Part shown: positions 3,674-55,432 of the stretch, piece after piece
Layout: each line of letters opens with the position of its first letter
How positions within the stretch are numbered: position 1 is the stretch's first letter
Source of the DNA: Gemmatimonadales bacterium
GTDB taxonomy: Bacteria; Gemmatimonadota; Gemmatimonadetes; Gemmatimonadales; GWC2-71-9
Reading direction: 5' to 3'
Length of the DNA: 64,000 nucleotides
Assembly (NCBI GenBank): GCA_035631795.1
Contig: DASQIB010000027.1
Coordinates: forward strand, 1,910 to 65,909
Position numbers and translations under genes: made by a program
Notes under the pieces: generated by a model
The model's database searches: none
The model's input: only the letters and a program-made list of their open reading frames with translations
What the model was told of the DNA's origin: nothing

Positions 3674-3975
3674 AGCTCGGGCTCCTCGAACGCCCCGAGC
3701 TTGGGCACGAGGAAAAACCCGTCCTTGAAGGCGGGGGCGAGCTCGGGCGGTCCGAAAGCGAGCCCGCTGGGTTTCACTTCGTCCGGGCGGAACCGCACCG
3801 CATCCGGTCCCGGGATGAACGGCTTGACGCCCTCACTCGCCGGAACGGCGTTGATCTGCGCGACGTACTCGAGAATACGCGACATCTGCTCGGCCAGCGC
3901 CGGCAGCGCTTCCTCGGCGACGTCGAGCTCCGCGAGCCGCGCGATCTTGCGCACTTCGTCATGCGTGACGCTCAT
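3670..3975 (-). CDS. gatC: Asp/Glu-tRNA amidotransferase subunit C
   Basis: Track ORF 3670..4500 trimmed to the ATG at 3975 (MSVTHDEVRKIARLAELDV...). The resulting 101 aa is typical GatC size. The upstream part of the ORF is Arg/Gly-rich and overlaps the helicase. ATGA overlap with the helicase stop. Confidence 0.85.
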   Translation of the reverse strand: MSVTHDEVRKIARLAELDVAEEALPALAEQMSRILEYVAQINAVPASEGVKPFIPGPDAVRFRPDEVKPSGLAFGPPELAPAFKDGFFLVPKLGAFEEPEL

Positions 3976-6236
3976 GCACTCTCCCACTCCCGCTCGAGTC
4001 CGGCATAGGCCACGAGCAGCTGTTTCGTCCCGATGTCCTGATCGTCGAATTCCACCGTCACCTTGAGCTCGCGTCCCGAGCCCGCCACCGCCCGCACCAC
4101 ACCGCCGCCGAACTTCCGATGCCGCACGCGCTCGCCGGCCACGTACCGGGGCGCGTCCTGCGACACCTCCACCTCCCAATCGAGCTCGACGGGCGCCGGC
4201 CGGCGCGAACGCCGACCCGGCTCGTCGCGTGACGCACGGTCGCCCCCCCATTGGGGTGTCGTGCTCCGCTCTTCCAGCACGCCCGCCGGCACGGCGTCGA
4301 GAAAGCGCGAGGCCGCCGACAGCTCGAGGCGGCCGTTGCGGTACCGCGTCCGCGCCCATGAGAGATACAATTTTTCGCGGGCGCGCGTGAGACCCACGTA
4401 GCAGAGTCGACGTTCCTCTTCGAGCCCCCCGGGCTCGCCCGCCGTCCGTGCCAACGGGAATAACCCGTCCTCCAGCCCGGCGAGGGCGACCACCGGCCAC
4501 TCGAGCCCTTTGGCCATGTGCACGGTCATGAGCGTGACGCCCGTGGGATCACCGCTCCCCTGGTCCGCCGAGGTGACGAGCGCCGCCTGGGTGAGGTAGC
4601 GCTCGATGAGAGTTGCACCAGGCGCCCTTTCCCCTGCCCCGGCTTCACCACCGGCCTCTTCCCCGGTTTCGTCCGCCGTTTCCGCCCACGCGGCCGCTCC
4701 AGCGATGAGTTCCTGCACGTTCTCGAGCCGCTCGATGCCCTCGGCGCCCTCGTCCAAGAGATACGGTTCGTACCCCACCGCCTCGATCGTCCGCTCGAGC
4801 GCCGTCGCCGGGTCCGATTGCGCGTGCCGGGCCCGGAGGTCGTCGATCAATCGCGCCACGGCGGCGAACGCGTCCCGCACGTTGGGCCGCAGGTCGGGGA
4901 TGCGGTCCGCCGCGCGGGCGGCCTCGAGCAGGGGCTGGCGCCACTGGCCCGCGGCACGGGCCAGCGACGCAAAGGAGGTGTCCCCGATCCCCCGGCGCGG
5001 CACGTTAACGATCCGCGCGAATGCCGCGTCGTCCGCGGGATTGGCGATGAGCCGCAGGTAGGCGAGTACATCCTTCACTTCCCGACGCTCGTAGAAGCTC
5101 ACGGCCCCCACCAGCCGATAGGGAATCCCCCGGAAGCGGAAGGCCTCTTCGAGCGGGCGCGACTGCGCATTGGTCCGGTAGAGGATGGCCATCCCTTCAT
5201 ACGGAACGTCACCGCCACCGACGCTCGCGCGTCGGGTCAGCTCTCCCGCGAGCCATTCCGCCTCATCGCGCTCATCGGCCGACGTGAGCAGCGTGACCGG
5301 CTCGCCGCCCTGCTTGGCGGTGAAGAGCGTCTTGCCCAGCCGGCTCGTGTTTTCGGCGATGACGCCGTTGGCGGCGTCCAGGATCACCTGGGTAGACCGA
5401 TAGTTCTGCTCGAGCTTGATGAGCGCCGCGCCCGGGAAGTCCTGCTGGAACGAGAGCATGTGCCGGACGTCCGCGCCGCGCCACCCATAGATCGCCTGAT
5501 CGTCGTCGCCCACGACACAAAGATTCCGGTGCTCCGCGGCCAGCTGCTTCACTAGTCGGTACTGGGCGGCGTTGGTGTCCTGGAACTCGTCCACCAGCAC
5601 GTGATCGAAGCGGCGCTGCCAGTACGCCAGGCGCTCCGGGTGCCCGGCGAACAGGTTCAGTGGGAACAACAGCAGGTCATCGAAGTCCATGGCGTTCGCC
5701 TGGCGCAGCGCCGGGCCGAGGGCCGCGTAGATCTCCGCCGCGAGACGCTCGAGCGGGCTTTCCGCGTTGGCCCCGAGCTCCTCCGGGAGCAGCATCCGAT
5801 TCTTGGCCCCGGAGATGATCCCGTGGATCACGCGTGGTGGGTTCGCTTTGGGAGAATGCCCGCGCTGCTCCAGCATGCGCTTGATGAAGGACTCGGAGTC
5901 GTCCTGGTCGTAGATCGTGAAATTGGAGCCGAAGCCCAGGAGCGGGGCTTCGCGCCGCAGCAGCCGGGCCGACAGCGCGTGAAACGTGCCGATCCACAGG
6001 CCACGGGGGTCGGCGCCCAGCAGCGAAGCCACGCGGGCCCGCATCTCGCCCGCGGCTTTGTTGGTGAACGTGACCGCGAAAATGCGCCACGGAGCCACGC
6101 CCCGCTCGCGTATCAGATGCGCGATGCGGGTGGTGAGCACGCGCGTCTTCCCGGAGCCCGCACCGGCGAGTACGAGCAGGGGTCCGCCCGTGTGGCGGAC
6201 GGCGCCTTCTTGCTGAGGGTTGAGGGCGACGGTCAC
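3972..6236 (-). CDS. pcrA: ATP-dependent DNA helicase, UvrD/PcrA family (SF1)
   Basis: 754 aa with Walker A GAGSGKTRVL, DEFQDTN, and UvrD/Rep/PcrA motifs throughout. Confidence 0.9.
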   Translation of the reverse strand: MTVALNPQQEGAVRHTGGPLLVLAGAGSGKTRVLTTRIAHLIRERGVAPWRIFAVTFTNKAAGEMRARVASLLGADPRGLWIGTFHALSARLLRREAPLLGFGSNFTIYDQDDSESFIKRMLEQRGHSPKANPPRVIHGIISGAKNRMLLPEELGANAESPLERLAAEIYAALGPALRQANAMDFDDLLLFPLNLFAGHPERLAYWQRRFDHVLVDEFQDTNAAQYRLVKQLAAEHRNLCVVGDDDQAIYGWRGADVRHMLSFQQDFPGAALIKLEQNYRSTQVILDAANGVIAENTSRLGKTLFTAKQGGEPVTLLTSADERDEAEWLAGELTRRASVGGGDVPYEGMAILYRTNAQSRPLEEAFRFRGIPYRLVGAVSFYERREVKDVLAYLRLIANPADDAAFARIVNVPRRGIGDTSFASLARAAGQWRQPLLEAARAADRIPDLRPNVRDAFAAVARLIDDLRARHAQSDPATALERTIEAVGYEPYLLDEGAEGIERLENVQELIAGAAAWAETADETGEEAGGEAGAGERAPGATLIERYLTQAALVTSADQGSGDPTGVTLMTVHMAKGLEWPVVALAGLEDGLFPLARTAGEPGGLEEERRLCYVGLTRAREKLYLSWARTRYRNGRLELSAASRFLDAVPAGVLEERSTTPQWGGDRASRDEPGRRSRRPAPVELDWEVEVSQDAPRYVAGERVRHRKFGGGVVRAVAGSGRELKVTVEFDDQDIGTKQLLVAYAGLEREWESA

Positions 6237-12381: not shown

Positions 12382-14220
12382 ATGGCCCAGACCGAACAAT
12401 TCCGACGAGTCGGCAAGTTCGAGCTCCATGAGCTCATCGGGGAAGGTGCGATGGGCGCCGTGTGGAAAGCGTACGACTCGGTCATCCGGCGCTACGTCGC
12501 ACTCAAGCTCCTGTCGCGCGCGGGGCGCACCGCCGACGCGCGCGATCGTTTCCTCCGCGAAGCGCGCGCCGCGGGGGCGCTGCAACACCCGAACATCGTC
12601 ACCATCTACGACCTCGGCGAGTCCGACGGGCAGCTCTTCATCGCCATGGAGCTGGTCGATGGGCGCGACCTGAGCTCGCTCATCGCGTTGAGTGAGCCAC
12701 TCGCGCTCGAACGGAAGCTGGACATCGTCATCGAGGTTCTGCAGGGGCTGTCCTACGCGCATGAGCGCGGCGTGATTCACCGCGACATCAAACCGTCCAA
12801 CGTGCGCATCGCCTCCGACGGTTCGGTGAAGATCATGGATTTCGGGATCGCGCGGCTGCAGTCGGCGGATGCGACGGGTTCGGGCGCGATCATCGGCACC
12901 CCGACATACATGGCGCCGGAGCAGATCACGAATGGCGCCATCACTCCCGCGACGGACATCTTCGCGGTGGGCTGCCTGCTCTACGAGCTGCTCGCGTACC
13001 GCAAGCCGTTCGAGGGCGAGACGGTCCATGGTGTGCTCTACCAGGTGCTCACGACGGACCCGAAGCCACTCCGCACCATGGCGCTCTCCGTTCCCGCGGC
13101 CCTCGAGCGCGTCGTGGCGAAGGCCCTGAACAAGGTGCCCGAAGAGCGCTACGAGACGGCGCGCCAGATGCAGTCCGCGCTCTTCAGCATCCGTGCGGCG
13201 CTGTCCGGCGCGGCGGATACCACGGAGCGTATCAGCCTGCGGTGGTCGCCGATCCCCTCGGCCGTGCTCCGGCTGGTCACCCACGCCCCGCTCAAGTGGC
13301 GCGCCACCGTGTTGACGACGTTGATGGTCACGACGCTGGTGCTGCTGTACGTATCGCGGTCCCCGTCTCCCTCCGCCGCACCGTCTCCCGAGCCCGGCCT
13401 CGCGAACGCCACGCTCGACCAACTCCTGAGCTATCCCCTCCCGATGCACCTCAACCCGGCGCTGCTCGCGCAGCGGGACTCCGCACTCGCGGCCCGGGAC
13501 CGGGCGCAGCGGGCAGGCGCCATGAAGAACAACGTGCCGACGCTCATCCTCGCCGAGGCGGTGCTACAGAACGCCGAGCGCGCCTTGCGCTCCGGGGACG
13601 TGGCCCGCGCCGCCAGCGGCTATCTCAGCGCGATCCCCCAGTATCGCAAGTCACAGACCGAGGGCGAGGAGCTTCGCGTGGAGGCCGAACAGTCGATCGC
13701 GCGCGCCACACCGGTCGTCCACGCGCTCGCGACACGGCCGGAAGCGGGACGGGCCGCGACGTCGCTCGCACGGGCGGAATCGCTGTACACCGCGATGGAT
13801 TATGTGGTGTCCCGCATGGCGGCACTCGATGCGGAGCAGGTCGGGGTGGCGGCCGGCGTCGCTCCGCCGTCGCCCCAGCCGGCGAACACGCGCGACGCGA
13901 TCGGCGTGCTGCTGCAAGATCTGGAACGTGCCGTCTCGAGCGAGCGGGTGGGCAACCTGCAGGTGCTGATGCCGAGCATGGGGGACAAGGACGTGGCGGC
14001 GTGGCAGACCTTCTTCAAGCGCTATACCCAGCTCACCGCGCGCTATAGCGTCGAGCGCCTCAACCCGCGCGGCGACACGGTCTACGCGGCGGTCCGGACC
14101 TCCTACATGTACGTGCCGGCGGGGGGCGGCGCGCAGAGCGAAACCCGCCTCCGTCAGACGATCCGCTTCGCCCGGTCTCCCAACGGCTGGCGCATCGCGG
14201 ACATCCGTAACGCGCCCTGA
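12382..14220 (+). CDS. Ser/Thr protein kinase with TM segment and conserved C-terminal module
   Basis: 612 aa with Hanks motifs GEGAMGAVWKA, HRDIKPSN, DFGIA and TPTYMAPE. TM segment WRATVLTTLMVTTLVLLYV. C-terminal ~110 aa are homologous to the C-terminus of the kinase at 50753..52750. Confidence 0.85.
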   Translation: MAQTEQFRRVGKFELHELIGEGAMGAVWKAYDSVIRRYVALKLLSRAGRTADARDRFLREARAAGALQHPNIVTIYDLGESDGQLFIAMELVDGRDLSSLIALSEPLALERKLDIVIEVLQGLSYAHERGVIHRDIKPSNVRIASDGSVKIMDFGIARLQSADATGSGAIIGTPTYMAPEQITNGAITPATDIFAVGCLLYELLAYRKPFEGETVHGVLYQVLTTDPKPLRTMALSVPAALERVVAKALNKVPEERYETARQMQSALFSIRAALSGAADTTERISLRWSPIPSAVLRLVTHAPLKWRATVLTTLMVTTLVLLYVSRSPSPSAAPSPEPGLANATLDQLLSYPLPMHLNPALLAQRDSALAARDRAQRAGAMKNNVPTLILAEAVLQNAERALRSGDVARAASGYLSAIPQYRKSQTEGEELRVEAEQSIARATPVVHALATRPEAGRAATSLARAESLYTAMDYVVSRMAALDAEQVGVAAGVAPPSPQPANTRDAIGVLLQDLERAVSSERVGNLQVLMPSMGDKDVAAWQTFFKRYTQLTARYSVERLNPRGDTVYAAVRTSYMYVPAGGGAQSETRLRQTIRFARSPNGWRIADIRNAP

Positions 14221-45824: not shown

Positions 45825-46473
45825 CCGACTCCTCTGGCGTTCGCCCGCGACGCGCCCCTCCCTCGAGGCGCGCCACGGCATCCGATGTCAATTCGTTCAC
45901 ATGCCCCAGCGCCCGCGCCGCCCAGATGATGCGCGCCCCATGCTCCAGGCTCTCCATGCGGATCCAGGCGGCGTCGAGCGTCGGCCCCACCGTCACGGCT
46001 CCGTGGTTCGCGAGAAGCCAGGCGTTATGGCCTGCCAGGTGCGGCTCGAGGCGGTCTCCCAGTTCGGGCGTGCCCGGCGTCCCATAATGGACGAGCGGGA
46101 CCTGACTGCATTGCAAGATAAGTTCCGGCAGGACAAATGTGTCAAACGTCTGCCCGGCGACCGCGAAGGCGGTCGCAATGGGTGGATGGGCGTGCACCAC
46201 TGCGCCGACGTCCGGCCGTCGCGTCAAGATCCGAAGATGTAAGTCCAATTCGGTCGTGGGGTTGCGGCGGCCGCGCCGCTTTCGACCCCCCAAGTCCACT
46301 TCCACCATGTCGAGCGGCCCGACGAGGGCTTTGATGACGCCGCTCGGCGTCACGAGCGCTCGATCCCGCCCCAGCCGGACCGAAAGGTTGCCGTCCTGCC
46401 CCGCGATGAGCCCCCGGTCGGCCAGCTGGCGGCAGCATTGCGCCATCCGCCGGGCGACGGTGCTGGCGGTCAC
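45817..46473 (-). CDS. class II aldolase/adducin-family protein
   Basis: Trimmed to the GTG at 46473 (GTGA overlap with the pyrC stop); an alternative ATG lies at 46446. GQDGNLSVR and AVVHAHPP motifs. Confidence 0.8.
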   Translation of the reverse strand: MTASTVARRMAQCCRQLADRGLIAGQDGNLSVRLGRDRALVTPSGVIKALVGPLDMVEVDLGGRKRRGRRNPTTELDLHLRILTRRPDVGAVVHAHPPIATAFAVAGQTFDTFVLPELILQCSQVPLVHYGTPGTPELGDRLEPHLAGHNAWLLANHGAVTVGPTLDAAWIRMESLEHGARIIWAARALGHVNELTSDAVARLEGGARRGRTPEESDA

Positions 46474-47771
46474 CGGGCGACGGGCGCTTCGACTTGATGG
46501 ACGATCTTGCCGCCGACGAGCGTGAGGGCCGCCCGCCCCGTAAGCACCCGGCCGGCAAACGGCGTGTTGCGACTCTTCGAGCAAAACGCGGTAGGATCCA
46601 CGGTCCAGGGATCGGTGACATCGAGAACGACGACGTCGGCGACCGCGCCCTGCCCCAACGTCCCCCCCGGCAGGCCGAACACCGAGGCCGGCGCCGCGCT
46701 CATCCGATGGATCAGCTCGGGGAGGGTGAGGATGCCATTCATCACCAGCTCCGTATAGGCGACCCCGAACGCCGTCTCGAGGCCCACAATGCCGAAGGGC
46801 GCGTCGTCGAACGCGGCTTCCTTGGCATCATAGGCGTGGGGCGCGTGATCGGATGCGATGCAGTCCACGACCCCGTCCTTGAGCGCCGCCCGCAGCGCGG
46901 CGACGTCTTCGGGCTCGCGCAGCGGCGGGTTCATCTTCGCGTGGGTATCGTAGCGCTCGCAGGCTCGATCGGTGAGCGCGAGGTGATGCGGGGTCACCTC
47001 CGCCGTCACGCGGATACCCTGCTCTTTCGCCCTCCGGATGAGCTCCACGGATCCACGGGTGGACATGTGGCACAGGTGGACGTGGCCGCCCGTGAGCCCC
47101 GCCAGCATGGCATCGCGCGCGACCATGATCTCCTCGGCGGCTGACGGGATCCCTTTCAACCCCAGGCGGGCGGACACGAGCCCTTCGTGCATCACGCCGC
47201 CGACGGCGAGTGTGGGCTCTTCGCAGTGATCGGCGACGGGGATGTCGAAAGTGCGGGCGTACTCGAGGGCGGTGCGCATGAGATGGCTCGACACGACCGG
47301 CCTACCGTCGTCGGAAACAGCGACCGCGCCCGCCCCCACCATTTCGCCGAACTCGGAGAGGCGCTCACCCTTCTGTCCGACCGAGATCGCGCCGATCGGG
47401 TACACGCGCGTGAGCCCGGCCCGGACGGATTGCCGCACGATGAAACCCACGGCGGCTTGATTGTCCGTGACGGGATCGGTGTTCGGCATGGCGCAAACGG
47501 CGGTGAACCCGCCCGCGGCCGCCGCGCGCGCGCCCGTCGCCACCGTTTCCACGTCTTCGTTCCCCGGCTCGCGCAGGTGCACGTGCACGTCCACCAGCCC
47601 CGGAGCGACGACGTGGTCGCGCACGTCCCGCACTTCGGTGCCGTCGGGCGCCCCCATCCCACGGCCGACCGCCGCGATTTTGCCGTCCTGGATCAGCACG
47701 TCGGCCGGCTCGTCCAGGTTGCGGCCCGGGTCGATTACGCGACCACCACGGAGTAACAGCGGCCGATTCAT
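46470..47771 (-). CDS. pyrC: dihydroorotase
   Basis: Trimmed to the ATG at 47771 (ATGA overlap), giving 433 aa. [13 protein letters not shown] and SDHAPH motifs. Confidence 0.9.
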
Positions 47772-48754
47772 TCGGACCCTCCCCCTCCCCCTCCCCCTCC
47801 CCCGGGGCCCTTGGCCGCGTCCGCTAATTCCGGTCGCCCGCCCGCAAGCAGGTACAGCACCGCCATCCGGACCGCAACGCCGTTCGTGACCTGGTCGAGG
47901 ATGACGCTGTGGGGTCCGTCGGCCACGCGCGAATCGATCTCGACACCGCGGTTCATGGGTCCCGGGTGCATGATCGTCAACTGCCGCGGCGCTTTCTCGA
48001 GCCGCTCGAGCGTCACGCCGAACACGCGGTAATACTCTCGCACGCTCGGGATGAAACCTTTCTCCATGCGCTCGAGCTGCAGCCGCAGGATGTTGAGCAC
48101 GTCCGCCCATTCGATCGCTTCCTCGATGCGGCGGAACCGGCACACGCCCAGCTCCTCGATGCCGCGCGGCATGAGCGTATCGGGACCGCAGACGCCCACC
48201 TCGGCGCCCATCTTCAGGAGGCCCCAGATATTCGAGCGCGCCACGCGGGAGTGCAGCACGTCGCCCACGAGGCAGACCTTCAAGCCGTTCACCTTCCCGT
48301 GTTTATCGCGGATGGTGAGGAGGTCCAGGAGCCCCTGCGTCGGGTGCTCGTGCTGGCCGTCGCCCGCGTTGATGACGTTGGAGCGGATGCGCCGGCCGAG
48401 GAACTCGGCCGCTCCGGACGAGGGATGCCGGATCACCACCATGTCGATGCGCATCGCCTCGAGATTCCGGGCGGTGTCCACCAGCGTTTCGCCCTTTTGC
48501 ACGGAGCTGCCACTCGCCGCCACGTTCACCGTGTCGGCCGACAGACGTTTTTCCGCGAATTCGAACGAGATCCGCGTACGGGTGGACGCTTCGAAGAACA
48601 GGTTGACGATGGTCTTGCCGCGCAGCGCCGGCACTTTCTTGATCGGCCGCTCGGAGACTTCCTTGAACGGCTCGGCCGTGTCGAGCACCAGCCGGATCTG
48701 CTCCGGCGTGAGGTGCTCGAGGCCGACGAGATCCTTTCCCAGGACGGGATTCAT
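47768..48754 (-). CDS. pyrB: aspartate carbamoyltransferase catalytic subunit (with poly-Gly C-terminal tail)
   Basis: 328 aa with [13 protein letters not shown] and HPGPMNRG motifs, ending ...[15 protein letters not shown]. Confidence 0.93.
47777..47803 (-). repeat. (GGGGGA)4 tract: G-quadruplex-type / repeated Shine-Dalgarno-like motif
   Basis: The minus strand reads GGGGGAGGGGGAGGGGGAGGGGGAGGG, ending 5 nt before the pyrC ATG. It is translated as the poly-Gly tail of PyrB. Confidence 0.8.
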
Positions 48755-49299
48755 CGAGGACCGCTCACCAGGTCGACCTGATCCTTTCCGTCCAGCTCTT
48801 CGACGAGCACGTCCACCCGCTCCCCGCTATTCACTTTTACCTGTTTGCCGACGATATCCGGCTGGATCGGGAGCTCGCGCCCACCTCGATCGACCAGCAC
48901 GCATAAAGAGATCCGCTTGGGGCGCCCGAAGTCGGCGAGCTCGTCGAGCGCGGCGCGCACGGTCCGTCCGGTATAGAGCACGTCGTCGACGATCACCACG
49001 TGCTTGCCGTCGAGGTCGCCGGGGATCCGCGTCTCGCCGATGACGGGCTTCGGCCCGACGGTTTCGAGGTCGTCGCGATAGAGGGTGATATCGAGCGCGC
49101 CGCGGGGGAGCACTACGCCCTCGTCTTTCTCGATGAGGGTCGCGATCCGTTCGGCCAGCTCCACACCGCGCCGTTGGATGCCGATGAGCACCAGATCGGT
49201 GGTGCCGTGCGTCAGCTCGAGCACTTCCACGGCCATACGCTGAAGCGCCCGCGACAAGGCGCGGGCGTCCAGGAGGATCGTGCGTTCAGGCCGGCCCAT
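48751..49299 (-). CDS. pyrR: bifunctional pyrimidine operon regulator / uracil phosphoribosyltransferase
   Basis: ATG at 49299 was chosen because [19 protein letters not shown] aligns with the B. subtilis PyrR N-terminus as recalled. The track start at 49338 is a [25 protein letters not shown] motif. Confidence 0.85.
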
Positions 49300-49416
49300 C
49301 TCGAAGCTGGAAGCTAACCACGGGTCGTCGGGGGTCAACGGCGGCGTCGGGGTTGACGACGCACCGAGCGTAGAGTCTCTTCGAGCCCGCGGACGTCCGA
49401 CCCCCCCGGAGGATTT

Positions 49417-50745
49417 ATGCGGCGGTACCTGTGGAGTCTCCTCGGCATGTTACTCGCAGCCACACCACTCGACGCCCAGGGCCTCCGCGAGAAGATCGCC
49501 GAGCTGTTCATTTTCACCGCCGGGCAGGATCCCTTGTTCCTGGGCGGCACCGCCGGCTCCGACTCCGCGACCGCCCTCCATGCCGACCATTTCATTCCCT
49601 CGGCGGTCGCCGACAACGGCACCCTCATCTCGTTCATCAGTAGTGCGATCAGTCAGAACGTCGGCAACCTCCCGGTCAGCGCCACGAGCGGCGGTTCCAC
49701 GTTTCGGTTCGAGGGGGGCGTGCCGGTCCCGACGTCGGGGTCGCCCGGCTCGGTGTTCGGGGAACGTGCGCAAACACTCGGCAAAGGACGGGTCTTTGTC
49801 GGCGCGAACGTCAATCACCTGCACTTTACGACTTTGCGGGGCGTGAGCCTGGACAACCTCCAACTGGTATTCACCCACGAGAACGTCACGGGACCCGCGT
49901 GCGACAGTCTCGTCGGCGCGTCATGCAACCCCTATGGCGTGCCGTTGCACGAGAACGACGTGATCGACGTGACGTTGGCGCTCGACATCGACATGACCGT
50001 GACTTCGTTCTTCATGAACTTCGGCCTGCTCGATCGCGTCGACATCGGAGTCGTCGTCCCGGTCGTCTCCACGTCGCTCCGCGGCACCAGCGACGCCCAG
50101 ATCGTCCCGTTCGGACCACCCCCGGCGCAGCACTTCTTCGGAGGGACGCCAACCAATCCGGTGCTCACGACGTCCCGTTTCGTCGAAGGATCCGCAACCG
50201 GCATCGGCGACATCGCTGCGCGTGTGAAGGTGAATCTCAGCCGATCGGACCGGACGAACTTCTCCGTTCTCGGTGACGTACGCTTTCCCACCGGGAGTGA
50301 GGACGACCTGCTCGGGTCGGGCCACGTAGCCGCCCGAGCGCTCGGAATCCTGTCCGCCCGGTTCGGACCCTTCACGCCCCACGCGAACATTGGCTACTTG
50401 TATCGGAGCGGCTCGCTGCAGAACAACGCCGTCCTCGCCACCGTTGGGTTCGACCACCTGATGGCGCCGTGGGCGACGATGGCCGTGGACGTCGTCTCCG
50501 AGTTGCAGGTGGGTGAGAGTAAGCTCACGCTCCCGGGGCCCGTGACGTACGACAAGCCCTACGTCCGCACGATCAACGTCACGAATATCCCGACCGAGCG
50601 CGACGACGTCATCGACGGGTCGTTCGGCTTCAAGTTCACCACACACGCAGGCATCACTCTGGTAGCGAACACCCTGTGGCCGCTGAATCGCGGAGGCCTT
50701 CGGCCCAACGTGCTGTGGACGGCCGGACTCGAATACAACTTCTAA
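49417..50745 (+). CDS. outer-membrane beta-barrel protein, unknown function
   Basis: 442 aa. GGAGG Shine-Dalgarno, signal peptide MRRYLWSLLGMLLAATPLDAQG, C-terminal ...TAGLEYNF (terminal Phe). Confidence 0.65.
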   Translation: MRRYLWSLLGMLLAATPLDAQGLREKIAELFIFTAGQDPLFLGGTAGSDSATALHADHFIPSAVADNGTLISFISSAISQNVGNLPVSATSGGSTFRFEGGVPVPTSGSPGSVFGERAQTLGKGRVFVGANVNHLHFTTLRGVSLDNLQLVFTHENVTGPACDSLVGASCNPYGVPLHENDVIDVTLALDIDMTVTSFFMNFGLLDRVDIGVVVPVVSTSLRGTSDAQIVPFGPPPAQHFFGGTPTNPVLTTSRFVEGSATGIGDIAARVKVNLSRSDRTNFSVLGDVRFPTGSEDDLLGSGHVAARALGILSARFGPFTPHANIGYLYRSGSLQNNAVLATVGFDHLMAPWATMAVDVVSELQVGESKLTLPGPVTYDKPYVRTINVTNIPTERDDVIDGSFGFKFTTHAGITLVANTLWPLNRGGLRPNVLWTAGLEYNF

Positions 50746-50752
50746 GGCCAGG

Positions 50753-52750
50753 CTAGCGGATCGTCATGAGCCGCCAGCCGGTCGAATCGACCGCCAGGAC
50801 CGCCCGGAACGTCACCGGACGCCGCTCAGAGCGACCCGTGCTGGCGTTGTCGTACGCGTAGACTCCACTGACGATGGCTTCAGCGCTCAGGCCGTTATAG
50901 CTCACCGCCGTTACTGTCAGGTCCGCCTTGAGGTTCCGGACAGATTCAAAGAACCCCTTCCAACTCTGTTGCTGCCCGGCGGTGAGACCGGGATAGGAGT
51001 GTCGAACCTGGTCCAGGTCGCGCGACTCGAGCGCACGCGCGTAGCTATCGATGACCCTCTGGATGTCGGGTCGGGGATCTTTCGGCGCAGGGGGGGGCGG
51101 CGCGGCCGGTTGCTCGACCGGCCGGGGTCTCACGGTGTCGATCTTTGGTCGCGACCGCGCGGCGCGCTCCGCCTCCGCCCAGAGAGATGCGGCGGTCGCG
51201 AGCTGGGCCATTGCCTCAGGCCCGCGGTGCTGGGCGGCGAGCGACTCCCCGCTCTTGAAGACCGTGTCCCCGCGAGCGAGGTCCGCGGGCGTCGCACCCG
51301 CGTCCACGGCATGGCTCATGGCAGCGAGCGCTCGCGCCCGGAGTGACTCCACCAGGCTGTCCTCCCGCTTCGTGGCGGCCGCCCGAGCCGTCGAATCGGG
51401 CACCACGCTCCGAGGCTGGCTCACCGGCGGTCTCGCACGTGCGGGCTGCCGCGGCGCGGGCGTCGCGATCGGTGGCGTGCTCGTCGACACCGTCTCCGCC
51501 GCCACGCGGGCCGGCGCCGGGGACGGGGTCTGCCACGGAGCAAGGCGCCAGAGGGCCCCGCCCGCGGCGATCACGGCCGCACCGAGACCCCACCACCACA
51601 CGCTCGCGGTCCGTCGGCGGACAACGGTGGACGCGGCGGGCCGCGCCCGCGGCTTCGAAAGCACGATGGGACTCGTCGGAGTCTTCAGCGGCTCCCGCCC
51701 GCCGGCCGGGCCACCGGCCATCGCGAGCGTGATCATCTCACCGCGCACGGGATCGTCCCGCCGCAACGAAGGCCGGCCGCAGACCGCGACGACGTCGTCC
51801 ATACTCGGCCACCGGGCGGCAGGGTCCTTCTCGAGCATCCGCATGACGCCGGCGCCGAGATTGGGTGGGCAATCCGGCCGCACCTCCGTCACGGGGCGGG
51901 GCCGCTCGTTGAAGTGGGCGTACATGACTGACATGGTCGACTCGCCCTCGAACGGCAACTTCCCAGTGAGCATCTCGTACGCCACCACGCCGAGCGAGTA
52001 TTGGTCCGATGCTCCAGTGACCTCGTGGGTCGCGCACTGCTCGGGGCTCATGTACGTCGGCGTCCCCACGGTGACGCCGGTGACGGTCAGTCCCTGGGCT
52101 TCCACGACCTTGGCGATGCCAAAGTCCGTGACGACGGCCCACCCGTCCTCGTCGAGCATGATATTGGCGGATTTGATGTCGCGATGAACTACTCCGTGAC
52201 GGTGCGCGTAACCGAGCGCATCCCCGACCTGGGCCAGAATAGTCTGGACCATGGCGATCGGGAGCGGCCCGACCTCGTGAATCACGGCATCGAGCGCCCG
52301 TCCCTGCACGTACTTCATGACGAAGTACAGAATGTGCTCGCTCTCCTTGACGGCATAGATGGGAATGATGTGCGGGTGACTCAGCGCCGCGGCGGTCCGC
52401 GCCTCGCGCTTGAATCGCTCGACCATCCCCTCGCCCATGAGCAAGAGCGCCGGCGACAGGACCTTGATCGCGACCTTGCGGTCGAGCGCCAGATCGTGCG
52501 CCAGGTACACAGCGGCCATCCCGCCGTGCCCCAACTCGGTGAGGATCTCGTATTCCCCGAGCGCCGCCTTCCGGAGCGTATCGAGCTGCGTATTGTACTG
52601 GACACCCGCCGGCCGGGCGGTCGCGGTGACCGCAGTGGGGTGAGCGGCATCGGCGGTTCGCAAGCTGCCGCCACAGTGCGAGCAGAACGACGAACCCGCA
52701 GCGATCGTTGCCCCGCACGTCGGACAGGACACGCCGTGCACCGTCGTCAT
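50753..52750 (-). CDS. Ser/Thr protein kinase with N-terminal zinc ribbon, TM segment and conserved C-terminal module
   Basis: Trimmed to the ATG at 52750 (ATGA overlap with the globin stop), giving 665 aa. CPTCG...CSHCG, HRDIKSAN, DFGIA and TPTYMSPE motifs. TM segment VWWWGLGAAVIAAGGALW. Confidence 0.85.
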   Translation of the reverse strand: MTTVHGVSCPTCGATIAAGSSFCSHCGGSLRTADAAHPTAVTATARPAGVQYNTQLDTLRKAALGEYEILTELGHGGMAAVYLAHDLALDRKVAIKVLSPALLLMGEGMVERFKREARTAAALSHPHIIPIYAVKESEHILYFVMKYVQGRALDAVIHEVGPLPIAMVQTILAQVGDALGYAHRHGVVHRDIKSANIMLDEDGWAVVTDFGIAKVVEAQGLTVTGVTVGTPTYMSPEQCATHEVTGASDQYSLGVVAYEMLTGKLPFEGESTMSVMYAHFNERPRPVTEVRPDCPPNLGAGVMRMLEKDPAARWPSMDDVVAVCGRPSLRRDDPVRGEMITLAMAGGPAGGREPLKTPTSPIVLSKPRARPAASTVVRRRTASVWWWGLGAAVIAAGGALWRLAPWQTPSPAPARVAAETVSTSTPPIATPAPRQPARARPPVSQPRSVVPDSTARAAATKREDSLVESLRARALAAMSHAVDAGATPADLARGDTVFKSGESLAAQHRGPEAMAQLATAASLWAEAERAARSRPKIDTVRPRPVEQPAAPPPPAPKDPRPDIQRVIDSYARALESRDLDQVRHSYPGLTAGQQQSWKGFFESVRNLKADLTVTAVSYNGLSAEAIVSGVYAYDNASTGRSERRPVTFRAVLAVDSTGWRLMTIR

Positions 52751-53172
52751 AACGCCGGCGAAGCGTAGCGGGAGACCATGTACGTGACGCCCTTCTCCAC
52801 CGTCCGCCGCCAAGCGTCCTCCACTTCGGCGGTAAACGCGGGATCAAATTGCTTCACCGTGGCGATCAGGCTATCCACAAACGGCGCGTAGAACGACGGA
52901 GGCACGTCCAAGTCCCGCCGGCTGTGCCGCTCGGCGACCCGCATCAACAGGCTCATATCGTTGTCGGGCTGCTTGGGGAACAAGAGCAAGAGTCCCAAGG
53001 CATGCCGCAGGAGCTTGTGCTGACGCTCGAAATCCGTCTTGGCGAACCGGGGAGCGGCCGCGGGGCAAGCCGTGAAGAAGTTGCGGTAGAACGCCTCGAA
53101 AAATTGGGGCGTCTCGCAGCAGCGCTGATAGCTGGCACTTGCCAAGTCTCGCGCTGCACTGTCTCGGCTCAC
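52747..53172 (-). CDS. single-domain 3-on-3 globin
   Basis: 141 aa. FFEAFYRNFFTACPAAAPRFAKTDFERQHKLLRHAL and RVAERHSRRDLDVPPSFYAPFVDSLIATV...AEVEDAWRRT are collinear with Vitreoscilla/flavohaemoglobin globin helices, including a candidate proximal His. Confidence 0.7.
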   Translation of the reverse strand: MSRDSAARDLASASYQRCCETPQFFEAFYRNFFTACPAAAPRFAKTDFERQHKLLRHALGLLLLFPKQPDNDMSLLMRVAERHSRRDLDVPPSFYAPFVDSLIATVKQFDPAFTAEVEDAWRRTVEKGVTYMVSRYASPAL

Positions 53173-53256
53173 GACCGGCTCTCAAGGGCGGGGGCGATCT
53201 TTATCCAATAACACCCGAAGACTCCGTGGGCAACACCTCAGGGTTTGGCGCCGGCG

Positions 53257-54225
53257 TTAGCGGAACACCGGGGTCAGCGGGGCCTCCCCTTTCAACACCG
53301 CCTGGACATTCGCCACGGCAATGGCGGCCATCTGGCGCCGAGCTTCATGCGTGGCGCTCCCGATGTGCGGGAGCAGGACGGTGCGGGGAGCGGCGAGCAG
53401 TCGAGGATGGATCGCGGGCTCGTCGGAGTACACGTCGAGGCCCGCCGCGCCCAACCGACCCTCCTCGAGCGCTGCGGCGAGCGCCTCCTCGCGAATCAGA
53501 TCGCCGCGCGCCGTGTTGATCAGGATCGCGCTGCGCTTCATTTGCCGCAGCGCGTCGCTGTCGATCATCCCCTTGGTTTCGGGGAGGGAAGGAACGTGCA
53601 GGGACAACACGTCGCTCTCTCGGAAGAGTCGCGACCGCTCGACGCGTTCGGCCCGGGTGTCCCGCTCGAACTCCGGGCGCGCGTTGCGCGCGGCGTAGAT
53701 GATGCGCATCCCGAAGGCGACCCCACGCCGGCCCACCGCCTGGCCGATCCGGCCCGCCCCGAACAACCCCAGGGTCCGGCCGCGCAGCTCGATCCCGAGC
53801 AGGAGCGTCGGGTGCCACCCCGTCCACTGGCCGCCTTTCACCACGTCGTTCCCCTCCACCACCCGCCGGGCGCACGCAAGGATGAGGGCCCAGGTGAGGT
53901 CGGCCGTCGCATCGGTGAGGACGTCCGGAGTATTGGTCACCTTCACCCCCCGCATCTCCGCGGCTACCACGTCCACGTTGTCGTGCCCGACGGCGCAGTT
54001 GGCCACGACCTTGAGCTGGGGCAGCCGCTTGAGCTCGGTACCGCCGACCCAGCGCGACAACAAGGAGACGATCGCCACGAAGTCGCCCTTCGGCGTCGGC
54101 TCGGCGCGCGGGAGCCACGTAACGTCGAGCCCGACCAGCTGGTCGGGCTCGAGGAAGGGCTGAAGCTCCGCAGCGATGAGAACGGCGTGGGGGGAGGGGG
54201 CGCGGGAGGAGGAGGGGGCGCCCAC
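53257..54225 (-). CDS. D-isomer-specific 2-hydroxyacid dehydrogenase (glyoxylate/hydroxypyruvate reductase-like)
   Basis: Trimmed to the GTG at 54225, giving 322 aa. NAD-binding motif GLFGAGRIGQAVGRRG and catalytic region LINTARG...PHIGSAT. Confidence 0.85.
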   Translation of the reverse strand: MGAPSSSRAPSPHAVLIAAELQPFLEPDQLVGLDVTWLPRAEPTPKGDFVAIVSLLSRWVGGTELKRLPQLKVVANCAVGHDNVDVVAAEMRGVKVTNTPDVLTDATADLTWALILACARRVVEGNDVVKGGQWTGWHPTLLLGIELRGRTLGLFGAGRIGQAVGRRGVAFGMRIIYAARNARPEFERDTRAERVERSRLFRESDVLSLHVPSLPETKGMIDSDALRQMKRSAILINTARGDLIREEALAAALEEGRLGAAGLDVYSDEPAIHPRLLAAPRTVLLPHIGSATHEARRQMAAIAVANVQAVLKGEAPLTPVFR

Positions 54226-54752
54226 TACCGCATACGAGCGCGGCGGATCGAGTCGTCCACCGCCAGCGCCCGCTCGGGACTCCACTTGTAGTAGAGCTGG
54301 AGGCAGGCGCCCGCCTGCATCTGGCGCTGGCGCGTGCATCGGGTGACCTGCGCGCGGTGTTCCCCCGCGTCATGCCGCCACAGCGAATCGGCCGTCGCCG
54401 ACGCCCGGGCGTCCGCCCAGCCGAACCCAACCAGACACCGCCCCACGTCTCCCGACGGATCCTTGGCGCACGTCTCCATTTCCTTCTTGTGACGCCCGGC
54501 GTCGGCGGTCCACGCGGAGTCGGCCCGTGACTGCGCGATCGAATCCTGCTGCTGCTGGTAGCTCGTTGCCGCCGCGAGCGCCTGGGGCGACTTCCATTTG
54601 TACTGGAGGACGAGGCACTGGGCCGCGCCCTTGGCGTCCATCGTGATGCGGCTGCACTCGCGCACCTCCGCGAGCCTCTTCTCGGCCGACTTGCCGCACG
54701 CGAGGGCGGAGACCGTCATCACGGCGGCGAACCAAGCCTTCGTCCGGTGCAT
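54225..54752 (-). CDS. lipoprotein with three Cys-containing internal repeats
   Basis: Trimmed to the ATG at 54752, giving 175 aa. Signal peptide and lipobox MHRTKAWFAAVMTVSALACG. Confidence 0.55.
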   Translation of the reverse strand: MHRTKAWFAAVMTVSALACGKSAEKRLAEVRECSRITMDAKGAAQCLVLQYKWKSPQALAAATSYQQQQDSIAQSRADSAWTADAGRHKKEMETCAKDPSGDVGRCLVGFGWADARASATADSLWRHDAGEHRAQVTRCTRQRQMQAGACLQLYYKWSPERALAVDDSIRRARMR

Positions 54753-54950
54753 CGAAGCCTCCGGGTACGGGCACAGGAGCGGGTGAGCGCACCCCACTCT
54801 AGTGACACGGCTCCGCTCCGTGCAAGCGCATCCGTGCTGTTGCATTCCGCATTGAAAGCGCGGTTTCTCCGCGCACGCGCAGGCACCCGGCCACGACCGG
54901 GAACAGCGCAACTCTCGACGGTCTAAGTGCTTGGTGTGCGACGCGGACCC

Positions 54951-54966
54951 GGGCACGCGGCTTGCG
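54951..54966 (+). promoter_or_regulatory. sigma-54-type promoter element (GGGCACG-N4-TTGC) upstream of pilin gene
   Basis: gGGCACGcggcTTGCg matches the TGGCACG-N4-TTGCW core. It lies about 60 nt upstream of the pilin ATG, in the correct orientation. Confidence 0.45.
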
Positions 54967-55027
54967 TTATCACGCCCACCGCGTTGCTGCGGCCCATACG
55001 GGCGTGCGGGTCTACGGAGGGACTGCT

Positions 55028-55432
55028 ATGCATCGCAGGGGCTTCACGCTGATCGAGCTGTTGATCGTGGTGGTGATCATCGGGATTCTCGCTGCCATCG
55101 CCATCCCGAAGTTCGCCAACACGAAGTCGAAGGCGTACATCGCGTCGATGAAATCGGACCTGCGCAACCTGCTCACGTCCGAAGAGGCGTTTTTCGCCGA
55201 CTCGATCAAGTACAGCGGGAGTATCTCGTGCACTACGCCGCCGACCGTGGGCACCGTCAACTTCTGCCCCAGCGTGGGCAACAACCTCGCCGGCCCCACC
55301 GTGAACGGCGGCGGCTGGAGTGCGACGATCACGAACAACAATCTGAACAACCCCGTGATCACGTGCGCGATCTTCGTGAACACGGCGGCCGTCGCGCCCG
55401 CGACCAACGAGGGCATCGCGGCCTGCTTGTAA
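55028..55432 (+). CDS. type IV pilin-like protein (prepilin-type N-terminal cleavage/methylation domain)
   Basis: Trimmed to the ATG at 55028 with a GGAGGG Shine-Dalgarno, giving 134 aa. MHRRGFTLIELLIVVVIIGILAAIAIPKF. Confidence 0.8.
   Translation: MHRRGFTLIELLIVVVIIGILAAIAIPKFANTKSKAYIASMKSDLRNLLTSEEAFFADSIKYSGSISCTTPPTVGTVNFCPSVGNNLAGPTVNGGGWSATITNNNLNNPVITCAIFVNTAAVAPATNEGIAACL

Follow-up and report, generated by a model that had tools for sequence, protein, structure and literature searches.

On the minus strand of a 64,000-nucleotide stretch of a Gemmatimonadales bacterium (assembly GCA_035631795.1, contig DASQIB010000027.1; hereafter the window), we found a gene for a single-domain globin that ends inside the start codon of a gene for a Hanks-type receptor Ser/Thr kinase. 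A functional link between the two products is well supported by comparative sequence evidence, because their adjacency is tight and conserved, has survived a rearrangement of gene order, and is mirrored by proteins elsewhere in which the two partners are fused. We consider it about an even prospect that the globin acts in trans as a detachable haem sensor subunit that modulates the kinase. This role is ranked ahead of the alternatives because members of the same globin family are fused to the C-termini of many kinds of signalling proteins, which favours an input role.

The overlapping globin and kinase genes

The globin gene (52747..53172, minus strand) starts with GTG at 53172, stops with TGA at 52749..52747, and encodes a PA3967-like protein of 141 amino acids. 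The kinase gene (50753..52750, minus strand) extends from ATG at 52750..52748 to a stop codon at 50753..50755 and encodes 665 amino acids. As a preliminary description of this DNA had reported, the two are joined by an ATGA stop/start overlap (52747..52750, minus strand), which can be read directly from the sequence: the globin ends with ...GCG TTA TGA, the kinase begins with ATG ACG, and the shared letters ATGA occupy 52750..52747. The start of the globin is backed by the N-terminus MSRDSAARDLA, which is common to its homologues. For the kinase, the open reading frame (ORF) in a mechanical list reaches upstream to a TTG at 52813, but its relatives conserve the ATG start instead. The ATGA overlap is identical in five of the six closest loci (L001-L004 and L006) and is a 1-nucleotide TGATG overlap in the remaining one (L005). 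The closest locus, from an uncultured Gemmatimonadaceae bacterium (L003), has a globin that is 88% and a kinase domain that is 94% identical to those of the window, whose source is most likely a Gemmatimonadaceae-like bacterium of soil. Scanning of 50500..54500 revealed no sigma-70 promoter-like site and just two terminator-like sites, both on the opposite strand and at chance level, and there was no Rfam match in 49000..55000; these results speak neither for nor against a promoter in the 84-nucleotide gap upstream of the globin. The globin and the kinase are probably made together in matched amounts, via a shared transcript and the stop/start overlap.

The kinase matches the Pfam family Pkinase (E = 5e-49) over residues 67-314 (51809..52552, minus strand), a region that is strongly conserved among orthologues. 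Its catalytic residues are all intact (K96, E116, H189-R190-D191, K193, N196, and D209-F210-G211), and the activation loop has a Thr-x-Thr motif (T222 and T224). The N-terminal zinc ribbon (residues 6-31, CPTCG...CSHCG; 52658..52735, minus strand) is found in most orthologues and matches Zn_Ribbon_1 over residues 9-28 (25.4 bits; cutoff 25). The kinase domain is followed by a juxtamembrane segment, a single transmembrane helix (approximately residues 383-403; 51542..51604, minus strand) that consists of the hydrophobic stretch VWWWGLGAAVIAAGGALWRLA with RRR just before it, a Pro-rich linker, a three-helix bundle, a second Pro-rich linker, and a C-terminal domain. All of the parts named in the preliminary description are present, namely, a zinc ribbon, a kinase domain, a Pro-rich region, a transmembrane segment, and a C-terminal module, but their order had to be corrected in that the transmembrane helix precedes the Pro-rich linker. 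According to the positive-inside rule, the part C-terminal to this helix is predicted to be extracytoplasmic.

Residues 405-665 of the kinase were modelled by AlphaFold2 on an alignment of 51 sequences. The model contains a disordered Pro-rich stretch, and every folded part has a predicted local distance difference test (pLDDT) score above 90. The putatively extracytoplasmic three-helix bundle (residues 452-533; 51152..51397, minus strand) comprises model helices 48-79, 84-102, and 106-129, with pLDDT above 95; more distant orthologues have three Big_2 repeats where the window kinase has this bundle. The C-terminal module could be identified as an NTF2-like (SnoaL/ketosteroid-isomerase-like) domain (residues 558-665; 50756..51079, minus strand) by the model and by orthologue profiles. 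In a Foldseek search with this alpha+beta domain (approximately residues 560-664), the top matches were 3hx8 and 3soy (E of approximately 1e-5; target template-modelling scores of 0.62-0.68), and the corresponding domains of orthologous kinases pass the Pfam cutoffs of SnoaL_3 (26.9 bits; cutoff 22) and SnoaL_4 (25.1 bits; cutoff 24). The window's own copy has no Pfam match and was assigned via the model, in which its pLDDT is above 90.

We also considered a PASTA kinase (PknB/Stk1) identity and rejected it; the NCBIfam model NF033483 scored 317.8 bits, below its equivalog cutoff of 450 and in the kinase region only, and the ectodomain has a helical bundle and an NTF2-like fold. The likeness to PknB-type kinases extends to the cytoplasmic Hanks domain, the Thr-x-Thr loop, the single transmembrane helix, and an extracytoplasmic sensor region. 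In contrast to these kinases, the window kinase has no PASTA domain and possesses a zinc ribbon, an NTF2-like ectodomain, and a globin partner.

The globin fold and its haem pocket

The assignment of the 141-residue protein as a 3-on-3 globin held up in both profile and structure comparisons. Its sole Pfam match is Globin (PF00042; 28.2 bits, above the cutoff of 22; residues 27-126), Protoglobin (PF11563) gave no match at E-values up to 1, and NCBIfam has no named family for it. The AlphaFold2 model, based on 37 homologues, has seven helices, a pLDDT of 83, and a predicted template-modelling score of 0.79. Among solved structures, the best sequence match is PA3967 of Pseudomonas aeruginosa (1tu9; E = 7.7e-21), followed by the HGbRL globin (3wfw; E = 8.6e-4) and then Hell's Gate globin I (3s1i). 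A Foldseek search with the model also placed 1tu9 on top (template-modelling scores of 0.82/0.88; 35% identity), with neuroglobins, Hell's Gate globin I, and myoglobins next; the top matches are M-type, and a globin-coupled-sensor structure is absent among the 50 matches listed. The window globin is a PA3967-like member of the M/F-type (flavohaemoglobin-related) single-domain lineage. 1tu9 itself was grouped with Vitreoscilla and flavohaemoglobin globin domains (Vinogradov et al., 2006; PMC1457004). PA3967 has the same length as the window globin, and its B10 Tyr, E7 Gln, and F8 His align with those of the window globin; it differs in having Ala where the window globin has His57, and neither a function of PA3967 nor an association with a kinase has been described. 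We considered whether the window globin might belong to the S family of classic globin-coupled sensors and rejected this, since it does not match Protoglobin and is not part of a fusion protein.

Pocket positions were assigned from the alignment with 3s1i and 1tu9 as Tyr29 (B10), Phe43 (CD1), Gln51 (E7), and His83 (F8). The distal B10 codon (53086..53088, minus strand) aligns with Tyr29 (B10) of 3s1i and is invariant in the 37-sequence alignment, the distal E7 codon (53020..53022, minus strand) aligns with Gln50 (E7) of 3s1i, and the codon of the predicted proximal haem ligand His83 (52924..52926, minus strand) aligns with the proximal His of 1tu9, 3wfw, and 3s1i. In addition, Tyr95 is aligned with the G5 Tyr of flavohaemoglobin-type globins. 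Both sequence stretches singled out in the preliminary description fall where it had placed them in the 3s1i alignment: FYRNFF...RF, described as the distal region, holds B9-B10 (F28 and Y29) and CD1 (F43), and RVAERHSRRD, described as the proximal region, holds His83.

We then compared these positions in 93 relatives, which comprise 27 kinase-linked globins, 56 unlinked globins, and 10 fused globin domains. The F8 His and the CD1 Phe are present in all 93, the B10 Tyr and the E7 Gln each in 92, and the G5 Tyr in 91. The profile search and the inspection of B10, E7, and F8 that had been proposed earlier thus returned Tyr, Gln, and His, each in at least 92 of the 93 relatives. His57 is likewise invariant, both in the 37-sequence alignment and in all 27 kinase-linked globins. 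We regard the protein as a bona fide 3-on-3 globin with an intact pocket that is predicted to bind haem. A globin fold that holds no haem and senses something else would have precedents, since non-haem sensor domains of the RsbR or photoglobin type are documented (PMC7475203; PMC8717448). Such a role is very improbable here, given that each of the proximal His, B10, CD1, E7, and G5 residues is shared by at least 91 of the 93 relatives and that the closest structural relatives are haem globins.

Gene neighbourhoods and fusion partners

A globin-profile scan of one genome per species identified 80 loci, of which approximately 70 are from Gemmatimonadales/Gemmatimonadota, nine from Acidobacteriota/Planctomycetota, and one from a contig binned as Chloroflexi. 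A kinase orthologue lies directly downstream of the globin and on the same strand in 20 of these loci. The 20 linked kinases have kinase domains 66-94% identical to that of the window, with an NTF2-like C-terminus detected in 16, and the globins of these loci are 45-88% identical to the window globin. In the more distant pairs, the genes are on the same strand and gaps of approximately 0-100 nucleotides replace the overlap. Two of the 80 loci (L064 and L065) have the permuted order kinase, outer-membrane barrel, and globin, with the cluster still intact. The flanks of linked pairs vary by clade, one having a 2-hydroxyacid dehydrogenase gene and pyr genes and another having one or two extra kinases and an AhpC-like gene. 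Other kinase-domain genes occur approximately once per 55 kb across 833 kb of fetched locus sequence, such that chance same-strand adjacency is expected at below approximately 1% per locus. The 20 linked loci are not independent events because of shared ancestry. Concerning the earlier suggestion to examine whether the adjacency is conserved, the same kinase orthologue is thus kept in 20 of 80 loci, well past chance, but the linkage is facultative.

Additional evidence for the association comes from fusion proteins. A globin-profile search of 1.84 billion representative proteins returned 2656 matches; the best 150 are mostly small stand-alone globins, and several long proteins among these 150 carry a PA3967-like globin at the C-terminus. 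Six proteins (P0123, P0127, P0142, P0201, P0213, and P0220) of approximately 575-700 amino acids consist of a TIR or SEFIR/TIR domain, a kinase-like domain, and a C-terminal globin. P0127 is from a Polyangiaceae genome and the others are from metagenomes; P0194 is a fragment in which a globin follows the end of a kinase-like domain. The globin and the kinase-like domain of P0123 are 48 and 47% identical, respectively, to the window proteins. In a word-indexed search with P0123, 105 of the 118 relatives listed are orthologues of the window kinase, and all of the relatives whose identity to its kinase-like domain is highest (40-50%) are among these orthologues, whereas the top-scoring non-self matches are other kinases with 33-40% identity, some of which have TIR domains. 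Our search for more TIR-kinase-like-globin fusions with P0123 as the query was swamped by ordinary kinases. The neighbourhoods of two of the fusion genes (L091-L093) contain no informative partner genes.

The same globin family has other fusion partners, namely, HAMP-MCP (methyl-accepting chemotaxis protein), HisKA-HATPase-REC, PilZ, and CheW. All pocket residues are kept in nine of the 10 fused globin domains, and the tenth has Phe in place of Tyr at B10. The fusions with TIR domains suggest that gas sensing is connected with effector domains of the TIR type. One further candidate fusion, P0264 (383 amino acids; globin, zinc ribbon, and kinase in one ORF), was rejected because it is garbled at the F-helix and around the HRD motif; its probable source is an overlapping globin-kinase pair that was frameshifted in the assembly. 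We also observed multi-globin proteins of the same family (P0131, P0145, P0189, and P0235). These include a protein of 2352 amino acids with nine matched stretches that is annotated as a chemotaxis protein, a protein of 1208 amino acids from the eukaryote Sulcionema specki with seven Globin stretches and a cytochrome b5 domain, a CheW protein with three globin domains, and a protein with two globin domains and pentapeptide repeats.

Genes for Ser/Thr signalling adjoin globins of this family in other phyla as well. In a Vicinamibacteria locus (L070; 4330..6402), a gene for an FHA-GAF-SpoIIE/PP2C phosphatase ends 18 nucleotides before the globin on the same strand. In an Acidobacteriota locus (L080; 4819..8004), the globin lies between a divergent Ser/Thr kinase gene and a convergent FHA-GAF(-SpoIIE) gene, the latter of which appears frameshifted in the assembly. 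Together with the TIR fusion P0127, these two loci extend the link beyond Gemmatimonadota; the association of this globin family with Ser/Thr phospho-signalling recurs in varied forms in Gemmatimonadota, Acidobacteriota, and a Polyangiaceae genome.

The kinase is accompanied more regularly by a barrel protein than by the globin. In the window, a gene for an outer-membrane beta-barrel protein (49417..50745, plus strand; 442 amino acids with a signal peptide) is convergent with the kinase gene and matches the Pfam family Phenol_MetA_deg (25.4 bits; cutoff 22). A barrel orthologue adjoins the kinase in at least 13 of the 20 linked loci, in either orientation. For the reverse test, kinase orthologues with 59-86% kinase-domain identity and a matching C-terminal domain were drawn from the P0123 search; nine such orthologues gave ten loci that represent nine distinct neighbourhoods. 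The globin abuts the kinase start in four of the nine (L083, L086, L088, and L089), with a 4-nucleotide overlap or gaps of 0, 4, and 9 nucleotides, and all ten loci have the barrel gene. These distributions identify kinase plus barrel as the core module, with the globin as an optional component whose position beside it is fixed. In L089 (1599..6322), the globin-kinase pair is immediately preceded, on the same strand, by genes for an FHA-guanylate/adenylate cyclase and a PP2C phosphatase. This layout suggests that the cassette is complete for Ser/Thr signalling and includes a candidate substrate.

These distributions also bear on the possibility that the two genes are co-located without direct interaction of their products, either because they share a transcript for expression only or because the synteny was inherited within one order. 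All 20 directly linked loci are from Gemmatimonadales/Gemmatimonadota, such that their counts are not independent, the globin is missing in five of the nine kinase neighbourhoods and unlinked in 58 of the 80 globin loci, and Ser/Thr kinases are numerous in these phyla. Nevertheless, the pair persists through changes of its flanks and survives a change of gene order, an overlap or short gap is kept across globins that are just 45-60% identical, and globins of this family are again fused or adjacent to Ser/Thr signalling components in Acidobacteriota and a Polyangiaceae genome. We therefore consider simple co-location rather unlikely.

Possible sensor and effector roles of the globin

If the globin is a sensor subunit of the kinase, a change in the haem ligand state (O2, NO, or CO) or in the iron redox state of the cytoplasmic globin would alter its binding to the cytoplasmic kinase domain, and autophosphorylation of the kinase and phosphorylation of its substrates would then rise or fall. 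The kinase's own extracytoplasmic input would be the helical bundle and the NTF2-like domain, probably linked to the neighbouring barrel protein, and the globin would add an intracellular gas or redox input to this envelope-sensing kinase. The gas- or redox-sensing arrangement put forward in the preliminary description is consistent with the coupling of the genes, the conserved pocket, the adjacency, and the fusions, whereas haem binding, contact with the kinase, the direction of regulation, and the signal itself are features that we infer.

Alternatively, the globin may be an effector or substrate, that is, an O2-buffering or NO-detoxifying haemoglobin under the control of an envelope-sensing kinase, for example by phosphorylation. 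The orthologous globins in most other Gemmatimonadales are located near genes for oxidase subunits I and II, universal stress proteins, and two-component systems, which points to a role in respiration or stress. The TyrB10/GlnE7/HisF8 pocket matches those of Vitreoscilla-type and flavohaemoglobin-type globins, linked and unlinked globins have no distinguishing residues, and several Ser/Thr residues of the globin (S14, T46, and T105) are invariant in the 37-sequence alignment. By contrast, the repeated occurrence of the family at the C-terminus of MCP, histidine kinase-receiver, PilZ, CheW, and TIR-pseudokinase proteins is the usual pattern of an input domain, the degenerate kinase-like domain of the TIR fusions could not phosphorylate a globin, and no gene for a reductase partner was seen beside the pair. 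On balance, we judge an effector role to be unlikely, and we prefer the sensor role.

Several observations nonetheless weigh against a sensor subunit. The 58 unlinked globin loci have no kinase within approximately 4.5 kb, and 1 kb or more of downstream sequence was available in 56 of them. Unlinked globins lie near genes for haem-copper oxidase subunits I and II, a P-type ATPase, and an OmpR-type two-component system, with tandem universal stress protein genes and CBS protein genes as further neighbours, and this neighbourhood fits O2 or NO handling as well as sensing. A TyrB10/GlnE7 pocket typifies bacterial globins with high O2 avidity and NO reactivity and is not specific to sensors. Among the 93 relatives, no position convincingly separates kinase-linked from unlinked globins, and there is thus no sign of a dedicated kinase-binding surface. 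In the kinase-anchored set, five of the nine neighbourhoods (L081/L082, L084, L085, L087, and L090) have no adjacent globin. One of these, L090, is from a close relative and has the exact synteny of the window (dehydrogenase, kinase, barrel, pyrR, pyrB, and pyrC) with the globin missing. Lastly, the kinase-like domains of the six TIR fusions have a degenerate HRD motif in all six and have lost DFG in five, with the AIK lysine kept in all six. They are best read as pseudokinases, and these fusions accordingly argue for physical association with a kinase fold and not for control of catalysis. Taken together, the absence of the globin from some kinase neighbourhoods, the oxidase genes beside it in most other genomes, and the lack of linked-specific residues keep the effector and co-location explanations alive.

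Two observations relate to the distribution of linked and unlinked globins. In a neighbour-joining tree of the 141-amino-acid globins, linked and unlinked sequences do not form two clean clades; the linked ones are scattered and basal. In L090, only 87 nucleotides (3914..4000) occupy the site that corresponds to the globin in the window (52747..53172), and the 33 nucleotides ahead of the kinase ATG are 61% identical to the 3′ end of the globin gene, a weak hint of a possible deletion scar. The layout around unlinked globins in most Gemmatimonadales genomes (L007-L022, L026-L030, and others) resembles a hypoxia or respiratory-stress cluster.

Known targets of haem-globin sensors are chemotaxis receptors, histidine kinases, cyclic-di-GMP enzymes, and the stressosome. 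The outputs of globin-coupled sensors such as HemAT, AfGcHK, DosC/YddV, and DgcO include MCP, kinase, diguanylate cyclase, adenylate cyclase, and gene-regulatory types (PMC7475203). As proposed for the window pair, a haem globin governs a signalling output in these proteins, but theirs is an S-family (protoglobin-related) domain at the N-terminus of a single polypeptide, whereas the window globin is M/F-type and a separate polypeptide with a Hanks-type partner, and the natural fusions of its family are C-terminal. Our literature search, which reached few subscription journals, uncovered no account of a globin coupled to a Hanks-type kinase, no relevant report on Gemmatimonadetes globins or on chimeric globins with protein kinases, and no description of the TIR-kinase-globin architecture. 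The earlier comparison with globin-coupled sensors therefore stands with regard to the unusual output but not with regard to the globin, which is outside the S family.

The closest working analogy is the stressosome of Vibrio brasiliensis (RsbR-RsbS-RsbT), in which a haem globin controls a separate Ser/Thr kinase and O2 binding lowers the activity (PMC4976288). Its RsbR is a globin joined to a STAS domain within a very large complex. No STAS, RsbS, or RsbT was identified in the pair or among its immediate neighbours, and the 141-amino-acid protein is a globin only. RsbT is an anti-sigma-type (GHKL) kinase and not a Hanks kinase. A stressosome-type haem sensor was accordingly rejected, given that there is no STAS fusion and the kinase partner is Hanks-type. 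HGbRL of Methylacidiphilum infernorum (3wfw), a globin fused to a Roadblock/LC7 domain with a putative signalling role (PMC4476040), is similar in that an M/F-like globin has been recruited to signalling, and is the second-best sequence match among solved structures. It differs in having an N-terminal, fused globin, a Roadblock partner, and a swapped dimer with Lys-His hexacoordination. In animals, the haem-regulated eIF2-alpha kinase HRI provides a case of haem controlling a eukaryotic protein-kinase fold, but it is a single eukaryotic polypeptide that senses haem supply and not gas, and its haem-binding N-terminus was not recognised as a globin (Vinogradov et al., 2006; PMC1457004).

Bacterial Hanks-type kinases are abundant, and to our knowledge very few have a known signal. 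If the globin regulates the kinase, then a bacterial Ser/Thr kinase would gain a defined and easily manipulated input (O2, NO, CO, or redox), globin-based sensing would extend to a new output class, and the uncharacterised PA3967 family, for which a crystal structure has existed since 2004, would have its first functional lead. More broadly, and with somewhat less than even confidence, we propose that PA3967-like globins form a second, previously unrecognised class of sensor globins, in trans or C-terminal, that feed gas or redox signals into Ser/Thr phospho-signalling. In Gemmatimonadota, they would pair with active Hanks receptor kinases and, in Acidobacteriota, with FHA-GAF-PP2C phosphatases; further partners would be TIR-pseudokinase proteins, one of which is from a Polyangiaceae genome. 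If this class is real, the window pair would be the first gas-regulated bacterial Hanks kinase.

Among the other features of the window, the immediate neighbours of the pair are the outer-membrane barrel gene, a 2-hydroxyacid dehydrogenase gene, and a 243-amino-acid ORF without a Pfam match. Beyond the barrel gene, and adjoining it, are pyrR-, pyrB-, and pyrC-like ORFs (46470..49338, minus strand) that were recognised by inspection of their translations; the L090 counterparts of pyrR, pyrB, and pyrC match the Pfam families Pribosyltran, OTCase, and Amidohydro_1/DHOase, respectively. The pyrB ORF of the window has a run of eleven glycines at its end and overlaps the long ORF in which pyrC lies. 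The window also encodes a paralogue of the kinase, a second receptor Ser/Thr kinase of 612 amino acids (12382..14220, plus strand). It is 39% identical to the globin-linked kinase in the kinase domain and 26% identical in the NTF2-like C-terminal domain (E = 4e-7), and it has no zinc ribbon and no globin-like match within 1.9 kb. Finally, an ORF at 54962..55432 (plus strand) has a type IV pilin/pseudopilin N-terminal motif (GFTLIELLIVVVIIGILAAIAIPKF).

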